DNA from: a virus
Taxonomy: Duplodnaviria; Heunggongvirae; Uroviricota; Caudoviricetes
Direction: 5' to 3' (one strand)
IMG/VR virus record: IMGVR_UViG_2636415906_000004
DNA length: 14,821 nucleotides
Below, piece after piece: positions 6,104-7,519 of this stretch (the stretch's first letter is position 1; each line of letters starts with the position of its first letter). A program made the translations under genes and the position numbers. The notes below the pieces were generated by a model. It was given only the letters and a program-made list of their open reading frames with translations. It made no database searches and was not told the origin of the DNA.

Positions 6104-6139
6104 TGGTTTTTTTCTATTCAATCTACATCAAAATCAATG

Positions 6140-6148
6140 TGTTATAAT
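6140..6148 (+). promoter_or_regulatory. extended -10 promoter element TGtTATAAT upstream of the moron genes
   Basis: Perfect TGnTATAAT located 38 nt upstream of the ATG at 6186. Confidence 0.45.
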
Positions 6149-6185
6149 GTTTTCTGTAAAACAACATTAAAAACAGGAGAACATT

Positions 6186-6455
6186 ATGAAACTGACCTCT
6201 ATCCATCTTGAAATACTACGTCGAGTGAATGAATTGCAGCCAAAGGATTCTAGAATTCAGGCTGCATCATTACCTCATCTCTCAGCAAAAGAGGTTAACT
6301 TTGCTATTTCAGATCTTGCTGATATAGGTTTTATCGATGTTATACGAAGCAAATCTGCCGAAGGTGGATTGATTGCTAATGAGATAACGTCAAAAGGTTT
6401 TGCTTTTTTGAGTGAGATTGGCGCTGAAAAAAATTCATCGATGAGCACTCATTGA
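6186..6455 (+). CDS. hypothetical small protein (89 aa), first gene of the AT-rich moron
   Basis: ATG preceded by AGGAG at 8-nt spacing. AT-rich. No TM segment. No family recognised; a winged-helix fold is only a guess. Confidence 0.6.
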   Translation: MKLTSIHLEILRRVNELQPKDSRIQAASLPHLSAKEVNFAISDLADIGFIDVIRSKSAEGGLIANEITSKGFAFLSEIGAEKNSSMSTH

Positions 6456-6469
6456 TTTCTGCTTCAATC

Positions 6470-6487
6470 GGCTGCCAATTGGCAGCC
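6470..6487. repeat. 18-bp perfect palindrome ggctgcc-aatt-ggcagcc after the 89-aa gene (hairpin or dimer-binding site)
   Basis: Exact palindrome 15 nt after the stop codon. No U-tract follows. Near-identical to the hairpin at 7493-7510. Confidence 0.45.
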
Positions 6488-6520
6488 TAAACTGTAAAGT
6501 GAATTTAAAATCGCCTACAA

Positions 6521-6548
6521 TTGATGCTTAAATTTTGTTCTGTATCAT
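6521..6548 (+). promoter_or_regulatory. candidate sigma70 promoter (TTGATG - 16 nt - TATCAT) for the 268-aa gene
   Basis: Hexamers read by eye in the 165-bp AT-rich spacer between the two moron genes. Confidence 0.3.
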
Positions 6549-6652
6549 CTGCAGGTTTAGGGATATCACAGTAGCTTTCTGACAAGAAGAGTTCTTTTCT
6601 TCTACCAATGAAGTGGTTATGTTAACCTGCGCTAAATCGAGACTGGTGCGGA

Positions 6653-7459
6653 GTGGAATCGAAAGTGTCATATTTTTACAGAAGCAAGAATATTTCAGGT
6701 GTTTCTATAAATGAAGATAGCTTGATTAGCTTAAGCACGGCAATTGTCGAACGCTGCGTTAAAATGAATGAGCAAGCTCAAAAGGAAAGTAGGGAAGTTT
6801 GTGCTCAATGTGTTTTTTTTATTTTGTTCGATGGTAAGGGGTATAAAGTTGATTCTATCGGTGAGCTTGTGAAATACTTTAGACAGGCCACTAGGATTGA
6901 TCAAATAAATTTTACTATTGAAACTTATCAAAGTCGACAGTCTAACAGGATGAATGGATCTTGGATGGAGCTACGAATTGATGAGAGGAATTCAAATAGC
7001 AGCACAATGATTGTAGCATCGGAAGATAATGAGTGGGTTGACTCGTTATGGATTACGATTCAGGATTTACTTAACAAGTGCAAAAATAAATTTAGATTTT
7101 TTAGAACAGCTTGGACTATGTTAAGTATCCAGATTTCAGGTGTGACAGTTGGCTTTTTGCTTAGCTTATGGACAGCCTCAAAACTGGCGCCAAAACTATC
7201 AATCGATGGTGCATTTGCTTTATCATTTATTTGTATCTTTATTTTGTTTTCGAACTTATGGAGCTTTGCTATTCCATTAATAATTAAGCTTATCGACTTT
7301 TTGTTTCCTAGTGTTAAGTTTGTTATTAATGGTAAAAATTACTTTCACTGGAGTGTCCAGGCTATAATTGGAGCGATTGCCAGTGCGGTTATATTGTATT
7401 TTATTAGCTCCATGTTGCTTTTTGCATTAGAAATGTTAAATAGCATCATTAAGAAATAG
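6653..7459 (+). CDS. hypothetical membrane protein (268 aa): ~150-aa N-terminal soluble domain plus 3 C-terminal TM helices; second gene of the AT-rich moron
   Basis: Hydrophobic segments TMLSIQISGVTVGFLLSLWTA, GAFALSFICIFILFSNLWSFAIPLII and AIIGAIASAVILYFISSMLLFALEML. About 25% GC in sampled lines. Start is GTG at 6653 with poor SD spacing, so the true start is uncertain. No family recognised. Confidence 0.6.
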   Translation: MESKVSYFYRSKNISGVSINEDSLISLSTAIVERCVKMNEQAQKESREVCAQCVFFILFDGKGYKVDSIGELVKYFRQATRIDQINFTIETYQSRQSNRMNGSWMELRIDERNSNSSTMIVASEDNEWVDSLWITIQDLLNKCKNKFRFFRTAWTMLSIQISGVTVGFLLSLWTASKLAPKLSIDGAFALSFICIFILFSNLWSFAIPLIIKLIDFLFPSVKFVINGKNYFHWSVQAIIGAIASAVILYFISSMLLFALEMLNSIIKK

Positions 7460-7492
7460 TTAATGAATTAGTTATAATTACATCAATTCTAT

Positions 7493-7519
7493 GGCTGCCA
7501 AATGGTGGCCTTTTTTATT
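7493..7519 (+). terminator. rho-independent terminator (ggctgcc-aaat-ggtggcc followed by T6) after the 268-aa gene
   Basis: 7-bp stem (two G-U pairs) followed by ttttttatt. It overlaps the ATG at 7502, which argues against that start for the holin. Confidence 0.55.

Follow-up and report, generated by a model that had tools for sequence, protein, structure and literature searches.

What are the two AT-rich genes that lie between the late-gene switch and the holin gene of a lambdoid prophage, and do they belong together? The question is raised by positions 6104–7519 of a 14,821-nucleotide stretch of tailed-phage DNA (Caudoviricetes; IMG/VR record IMGVR_UViG_2636415906_000004), the whole of which is called the window here. 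The moron concept was formed on the lambdoid phages HK97 and HK022, and Bor, Lom and the stx genes of the Q–S interval are familiar examples. A preliminary description, made from the letters alone, had read the interval as one two-gene moron that encodes a candidate defence or exclusion pair. Both of its open reading frames (ORF1 and ORF2) exist as described. The reading that we favour, tentatively and at a little less than an even chance, is that two moron-type cargo genes, independent of each other, lie one after the other in the variable slot that pR'/tR' and the holin delimit, and that ORF2 is a stand-alone membrane protein and a candidate for exclusion or abortive infection. The features of the interval are as follows.

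6140–6148, plus strand: extended −10 motif TGTTATAAT, candidate private promoter of ORF1, read from the sequence
6186–6455, plus strand: ORF1, soluble protein of 89 amino acids (aa); Shine–Dalgarno sequence AGGAG at 6175–6179, 6 nt before the ATG
6470–6487, no strand assigned: perfect 18-bp palindrome GGCTGCCAATTGGCAGCC with no T-run, found by repeat search, 14 nt past the ORF1 stop codon
6665–7459, plus strand: ORF2, 264-aa inner-membrane protein; GTG start, Shine–Dalgarno sequence GGAG at 6650–6653
7493–7516, plus strand: intrinsic terminator, stem GGCTGCC/GGTGGCC followed by T6, just before the holin leader, found by terminator scan and folding

The interval has the features of moron cargo. 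It is an insertion between genes that are adjacent in relatives, and Citrobacter phage phiNP, Hafnia phage yong2, the Klebsiella phages described below and two of the loci numbered in our survey (L002 and L006) differ in what they carry at this point. As horizontally acquired cargo, which is how it was first described, it is missing from related phages with the same flanks. Its base composition is deviant, with a guanine-plus-cytosine (GC) content of 35.1% over 6104–7519 (ORF1, 38%; ORF2, 34.5%) as compared with 49–52% in the Q fragment, both holins and the endolysin. The contrast with flanks of about 50% noted in the preliminary description is therefore real, but the average of 35% is higher than the 25–30% given there. 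The terminator at 7493–7516 lies downstream, and no tRNA and no Rfam family at gathering score was found within the cassette.

The proposed functional pairing of the two proteins did not hold up in the same way. ORF1 and ORF2 are each present in the same 41 of 5426 complete Escherichia coli genomes, always with at least 99% identity, and wherever the exact ORF1 protein is encoded in the E. coli-type contigs that were examined, ORF2 comes next. These copies have at most 8 substitutions over the 1274-bp stretch from ORF1 to ORF2, one copy with an 11-bp deletion aside, and because all are near-identical the co-occurrence in 41 genomes constitutes one evolutionary observation. Across diverged homologues the association is lost: ORF1 homologues stand alone in Klebsiella phages, and ORF1 is absent where homologues of ORF2 are found in three other phage lineages and at 34 non-enterobacterial loci. 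Tight operonic coupling is also lacking, as the genes are separated by a gap of 209 bp that contains a hairpin of −14.9 kcal/mol.

Homologues of ORF2 with 77–79% identity (L002 and L010) and 51% identity (L007 and L009) are located just before the holin gene in lambdoid phages with other Q types. In these phages the preceding gene is not ORF1 but encodes an orphan PF01555 N6/N4 DNA methyltransferase. In L006 the methyltransferase gene has been deleted, leaving a 3' remnant, and the ORF2 homologue is abutted by a small protein of another family (MLNQNDMT...) that has no detectable relation to the ORF1 type (hhalign probability 0.3%). Phage phiNP has the small-protein-plus-methyltransferase module without ORF2, the holin following directly, and in yong2 the same module is accompanied by an unrelated 98-aa two-helix membrane protein in the place of ORF2. 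The Q-to-holin slot is a modular array that comprises a small winged-helix-like gene, an optional methyltransferase, an optional membrane protein, a terminator and the holin.

The module itself, a 65–87-aa MLNQNDMT... protein (with a MotA-like annotation in yong2) plus the PF01555 methyltransferase, lies right after Q in several enterobacterial phages (positions 3088–4553 of L081, which is phiNP; 3147–4846 of L082, which is yong2; and 2188–3614 of L007), and its layout resembles a controller-protein-plus-methylase unit from which the nuclease is absent. ORF2 was considered as that missing nuclease, in an operon of controller, methyltransferase and nuclease resembling a restriction-modification system, and the idea was rejected: the module exists without ORF2, the non-phage members of the ORF2 family have no recurrent DNA methyltransferase neighbour (generic S-adenosylmethionine-dependent methyltransferase domains occur in only 2 of 148 neighbours), and no resemblance to a nuclease fold was detected. 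The first genes after Q in L002 (6003–6683) and L010 (5925–6527) encode further uncharacterized slot cargo, unannotated proteins of 226 and 200 aa, respectively. In each, a single hydrophobic segment precedes a stretch with many charged residues, and by BLAST the two are unrelated to each other.

The membrane protein was described at first with 268 residues, as in the mechanical listing from the GTG at 6653. That frame exists, but the native start is most likely the GTG at 6665, giving 264 residues, because this codon matches the ATG of the 51%-identical homologues, follows the GGAG at 6650–6653 and is the choice of the PGAP annotation. A 231-aa form from the ATG at 6764, which is that of the PHROG model and of one homologue with a nonsense mutation, was rejected since it would lack the first 33 residues, which homologues conserve. 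ORF2 matches phrog_30208, a group without assigned function. Few relatives are found in word-indexed searches; an exhaustive search with a hidden Markov model (HMM) of 1.84 billion representatives clustered at 50% identified 194 proteins with E < 1e-3, including 101 with E < 1e-30. Nearly all are 255–270 aa long and align from end to end. A fusion of ORF1-like and ORF2-like domains was sought, and the longer family members proved to have only loop insertions or mis-called starts.

In an alignment of 52 members, the N-terminal part is characterized by the motifs RFDxKGY, VER, ELRLD and SDDxxW and the membrane part by Q..GV..GF..SLW, FSNxW and FPN(I/V)xF. The nearly invariant residues are Asp56, Gly59, Glu79, Gln156, Ser167, Asn197, Trp199 and Pro215, and the last five of these, which are among the best conserved in the family, are carried by the membrane helices. 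The AlphaFold2 (AF2) model built from the family alignment (predicted local distance difference test score, pLDDT, 93; predicted template modeling score, pTM, 0.81) comprises a cytoplasmic α/β domain (residues 1–138), a short helix (residues 142–147) and three long helices (residues 149–177, 183–213 and 226–263). Hydropathy peaks of 1.49, 2.29 and 2.32 and the distribution of charges are consistent with an N-in, three-span topology, so that hydropathy and the model agree on the soluble N-terminal domain and three C-terminal helices that had been read from the sequence. With conserved motifs in both domains and a confident model, ORF2 represents a real, constrained family.

This family corresponds to nothing in the resources that were searched, which bears out the statement that both proteins are uncharacterized. 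No Pfam, NCBIfam or PADLOC model was found for ORF2 or its relatives when the 52 family members were scanned, the family profile has no PDB sequence below E = 1, and the ORF2 model has no significant Foldseek match in the PDB or among viral models. A tblastn search with ORF2 of 50,697 phage records gave no match. The source names of ten family clusters are all "hypothetical protein", and elsewhere members are called "hypothetical" or "membrane domain protein". No catalytic or toxin motif is recognizable in ORF2, and literature searches on prophages, defence, late operons and DUF2513, and by accession, turned up nothing on either protein. The suggested PADLOC check was negative: neither ORF1 nor ORF2 matches a PADLOC-DB v2 model, and the 52 family members give only single matches with E > 0.005.

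The wider context of the ORF2 family was examined in 34 usable non-enterobacterial loci from genome and metagenome scans, which come from Thiobacillus, Methyloversatilis, Deltaproteobacteria, Alcanivorax, Solimonas, Mariprofundaceae, Melioribacteraceae, Sedimentisphaerales and uncultured samples. In 29 of the 34 loci the GC content of the family gene is below that of its flanks, with a mean difference of 9 points, and in Thiobacillus (0.43 versus 0.67) and Methyloversatilis the composition shifts sharply where the gene begins and ends, indicating that the gene has been transferred horizontally more than once and often by itself. Apart from integrases (4 loci) the family has no recurrent neighbour; no small gene recurs beside it and ORF1 is absent from all 34 loci. 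Genes of known or candidate defence systems are found nearby in several unrelated taxa. In Alcanivorax a full-length PD-Lambda-4_A is directly downstream of the family gene, in a Mariprofundaceae genome the family gene lies between PD-T4-10_B and FRG/PDC-S15, and other neighbours include HEPN_AbiU2 and DUF4062. The 148 ORFs within 3 kb of family genes include strong matches to MADS mad2/3/8, PDC-S08, PDC-S45, dCTPase and SoFic. The examination of gene neighbourhoods thus shows a mobile family that recurs near defence genes but lacks the conserved partner of a two-gene system. In the Alcanivorax locus (Alcanivorax sp. S6407, L028, 6001–10757) the family gene is 117 bp upstream of the PD-Lambda-4_A homologue on the same strand, and two DUF6966 proteins are encoded upstream of the family members in L027 and L028.

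ORF1 matches phrog_32916 (E 2.9e-61), again a group without assigned function. Its alignment with Pfam DUF2513 spans residues 9–78 and scores 21.8 bits (E 2.4e-4), below the gathering cut-off of 29.6, and further weak matches, to HTH_45, Lrs14 and MarR chains at E ~0.3, are also sub-threshold and are mutually consistent. The ORF1 sequence has nothing below E = 1 in the PDB, and its profile gives only chance-level matches there (best E 0.009, a glyoxalase; MarR chains ~0.3). The single-sequence AF2 model is poor and uninformative (pLDDT 54). ORF1 is similar in length to DUF2513 and other small winged-helix proteins, although the DUF2513 alignment is sub-threshold and the model poor. From these profile matches ORF1 is probably a small winged-helix protein, for which a role in DNA binding is plausible.

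The organization around ORF1 is known from more than one phage. A tblastn search of phage genomes identified 79-aa homologues with 37% identity (pairwise E 1e-12) in the Klebsiella phages ST405-OXA48phi1.2 and vB_VIPKPNMC05, in both of which the homologue is the sole gene between Q and the holin. The upstream DNA of these phages is collinear with the window, running from a hairpin terminator through TGGTAAAAT and AGAGGAG to the ATG, and a strong terminator is present 3' of the gene. The extended −10 sequence at 6140–6148, TGTTATAAT, is the sole occurrence of TGNTATAAT in the window, where 0.66 is expected by chance. Its retention at the same place in distant homologues is the best evidence that it is functional, and the private promoter for ORF1 put forward in the preliminary description is plausible on this comparison. 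The collinear layout suggests that ORF1 may be a self-contained unit.

ORF2 is bracketed by hairpins. The palindrome at 6470–6487 folds as RNA at −14.9 kcal/mol (z = −3.1), and the hairpin of the closing terminator (7493–7510) at −11.4 kcal/mol (z = −3.4), so that the hairpin plus T6 of the preliminary description was both recovered by the scan and predicted to be stable. A 19-nt hairpin sequence, GGCTGCCAA...GGC(A/T)GCCT, flanks ORF2 on both sides (6470–6488 and 7493–7511) with 84% identity. The palindrome could be an operator, a hairpin that stabilizes the RNA or the scar of a recombination event, marking the ORF2 unit. A hairpin and T-run are kept at the position of the terminator in L002, L010 and L006 and also in yong2, and because the latter has them without ORF2 the terminator may belong to the phage backbone. 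A weak promoter-like sequence, TTGATG-16-TATCAT, is present at 6521–6548 inside the spacer between the two genes.

Three other explanations of the interval were weighed against the favoured one. It is improbable that ORF1 and ORF2 form a two-component abortive-infection, exclusion or toxin-antitoxin-like module in which the small cytoplasmic protein regulates, or senses for, the membrane effector. The invariable succession of the two genes in the E. coli-type contigs and their presence in the same 41 genomes are what such a module predicts, L006 also has a small winged-helix-like gene, although of another family, directly before its ORF2 homologue, and the palindrome between the genes could serve as an operator. 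However, the co-occurring copies represent one lineage, each gene is found without the other elsewhere (ORF1 in Klebsiella phages; ORF2 in L002, L010, L007 and the 34 loci with no recurrent small neighbour), the spacer with its hairpin precludes translational coupling, and the adjacency in L006 arose through deletion of the methyltransferase gene, whose 3' remnant persists. A function of ORF2 in lysis, as an antiholin, a regulator of lysis timing or a holin-like protein working with the holin immediately downstream, is more improbable still. It would account for the position of ORF2 directly before the holin and on the late transcript in four phage lineages with two holin types, for its three membrane helices, a number shared with class I holins, and for the other small membrane protein that replaces it in yong2. 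Nevertheless, most of the family is outside phages, where neither holin nor endolysin is among the recurrent neighbours, a terminator separates ORF2 from the holin, related phages lyse without ORF2, and a frameshifted copy lies in a late region that is otherwise intact. No holin model matches ORF2, the nearest approach being a match of one family member to the LydA holin at E 0.019, and a protein of 264 aa with a 140-aa soluble domain does not have the characteristics of a holin family.

A more serious competitor, though unlikely in our estimate, is that ORF2 is cargo of a selfish or neutral kind, or that it serves host physiology in a way unrelated to phages, such as ion or stress handling, and that its defence neighbours reflect residence in the same variable islands. 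Housekeeping operons (nusA-infB/nuo, SecDF and ABC transporters) adjoin the gene at several loci, the association with defence genes comes without a control, and the protein has no recognizable catalytic or toxin motif. Conservation over 194 clusters and the nearly invariant polar residues of the helices argue instead for a selected activity; moreover, phages have acquired ORF2 repeatedly in a slot known for genes that benefit the lysogen, and the gene adjoins full-length defence proteins in several unrelated taxa. The reading of two independent cargo genes with ORF2 as an exclusion candidate has its own difficulties, some of which are those just named: the housekeeping flanks, and a defence-neighbourhood signal that, having no matched control, is qualitative. 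ORF2 has no homology that would tie it to a known family of defence, exclusion, toxin or channel proteins. The 11-bp deletion, found in 1 of 18 copies (L047, GCA_900603045.1; around window positions 6960–6970), frameshifts ORF2, and ORF2 is therefore dispensable for the prophage. The extended −10 motif on its own is no more than chance and not significant. Finally, the constant company of ORF1 and ORF2 in E. coli leaves a functional link within that lineage possible.

On the favoured reading of two independent genes, ORF1 would be a member of a small winged-helix-like family sited directly past tR' with its own extended −10 promoter, and ORF2 would be a member of an unannotated family of ~260 aa that has moved as a single gene across bacterial phyla. 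A defence role for ORF2 is a reasonable hypothesis drawn from its context. The protein would act alone at the inner membrane in phage exclusion or abortive infection, its cytoplasmic domain sensing or gating and its helical bundle perturbing the membrane or blocking DNA entry, with the conserved polar helix residues as the putative active part. In an intact phage both genes would be read late in infection by Q-modified polymerase, and in the lysogen expression of ORF2 may depend on the ORF1 promoter or on a promoter inside the spacer. In the decayed copy of the window, with its truncated Q, any expression must come from the candidate promoter at 6140–6148 or from one in the 209-bp spacer.

The slot is bounded by the following features of the late-gene switch and the lysis cassette.

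5624–5971, plus strand: C-terminal fragment of the Q antiterminator, placed behind a Dam fragment by deletion (Pfam Antiterm PF03589, E 6.6e-31)
6003–6043, plus strand: lambda-type late promoter pR', with −35 TTGTAT (6003–6008), −10 TAAGAT (6027–6032) and AACGAT pause element (6038–6043)
6078–6104, plus strand: tR' intrinsic terminator, 8-bp GC-rich stem (hairpin 6078–6097) plus T7, found by terminator scan
7568–7954, plus strand: holin (Phage_holin_8), which opens the lysis cassette and closes the slot downstream (Pfam PF16931, E 8.5e-35)

The upstream boundary is as the preliminary description had it. Positions 5990–6047 align with lambda pR' (lambda 44,540–44,600), including the −35, the −10 and the AACGATGGG pause-inducing element, and TCTCAACGATGGG is a block common to both; the intrinsic terminator that follows, as in a lambda-type late leader, has a hairpin that folds at −13.7 kcal/mol (z = −4.98). 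The truncation of Q was also correctly recognized: the fragment has 115 aa as compared with 250 aa in the intact relatives L014 and L046, and PGAP labels it "antitermination protein, missing N-terminus". It is part of a deletion chimera (5266–5971, plus strand) in which a piece of PerC is joined to the N-terminal half of a Dam methylase and to the last 107–115 aa of Q; intact relatives have ~3 kb at this place, with LexA-like, RusA, KilA-N, DUF968 and full Q genes.

Positions 6000–7560 match the chromosome of E. coli ACN001 with 100% identity, as they do that of many strains of the avian pathogenic E. coli (APEC) O78 type. The host element is a CPS-53/e14-like lambdoid prophage adjoining a tRNA-Pro gene. 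In ACN001 it is decayed, has a tRNA-Pro gene on either side and is located beside yejM. It contains an integrase, yfdR/yfdQ/yfdP-type early genes, the PerC-Dam-Q deletion chimera and the lysis cassette, followed farther along by tail-fibre remnants, a DUF262 type IV restriction enzyme and IS2. The same cassette is present in apparently intact prophages, such as that of the O169:H41 strain F6326-C1 with a 250-aa Q and full head and tail genes, so it is not a product of decay.

Other genes of the window also have the appearance of cargo. A 283-aa protein with N-terminal membrane helices is encoded in AT-rich DNA (32% GC) at 1–852 (plus strand), between the tRNA-Pro attachment side and the integrase; it matches phrog_3630, which has no assigned function, and no PADLOC or NCBIfam model, and is further unannotated cargo of the prophage edge. 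Past the lysis cassette, the reverse-oriented AT-rich gene (38% GC) at 9295–9711 (minus strand), annotated by PGAP as DUF6173 and matching phrog_3306, also without assigned function, is probably a further moron. Near the other prophage end, positions 11525–13474 (minus strand) encode the DUF262/GmrSD-like type IV methyl-directed restriction enzyme, which matches PADLOC mREase_IV over its full length (E = 0), and the element therefore already has one recognized defence gene.

Comparison with known systems places the two genes among familiar kinds without identifying them with any. Like lambdoid morons, they are extra genes amid conserved late genes, with atypical base composition, a promoter-like element upstream and a terminator downstream, and they are present or absent among otherwise collinear phages; the difference is that two units with a putative promoter are stacked and that no known moron product is related to either protein. 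ORF2 resembles lambda RexAB as a prophage-borne membrane protein that could collapse the membrane potential on infection, and a pairing of this kind had been put forward in the preliminary description. There is, however, no similarity in sequence or fold: RexB has four transmembrane helices and needs RexA, whereas ORF2 has a fused cytoplasmic domain and no conserved partner. P22 SieA, T4 Imm and HK97 gp15 are superinfection-exclusion proteins, small prophage-encoded proteins of the inner membrane that act alone, as ORF2 would, but they are not homologous and lack its conserved 140-aa cytoplasmic domain, and the range of the ORF2 family over many phyla and non-phage islands is unusual for such narrow exclusion proteins. 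The architecture proposed for ORF2, in which a soluble domain that senses a ligand or signal is joined to helices that disrupt the membrane, is also that of the 2TM and Cap15 effectors of CBASS, PycTM of Pycsar and SLATT proteins. In contrast to these, ORF2 has no cyclase or other signal-generating partner nearby, and the PADLOC 2TM effector models match only 1 of the 52 family members (E 0.006).

The ORF2 family is new to annotation resources, but its kind is a familiar one, prophage or island cargo that encodes a sensor-plus-membrane protein. If ORF2 should have no phenotype, the finding shrinks to ordinary unannotated prophage cargo. A bolder proposal, which we regard as possible but doubtful, is that ORF2 founds a widespread single-gene anti-phage system in which a cytoplasmic sensor and a three-helix membrane module kill or seal the cell on infection, and which moves as a one-gene cassette among phages, defence islands and the chromosomes of many phyla. 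If ORF2 does protect against phages, it would represent a compact one-gene defence family that PADLOC, Pfam and NCBIfam miss, with a range from E. coli prophages to Thiobacillus, Alcanivorax, Melioribacteraceae and Planctomycetes and with a sensor domain for which structural comparison gives no significant match. The modular Q-to-holin slot of this phage group is a useful place in which to seek further genes of benefit to the lysogen.

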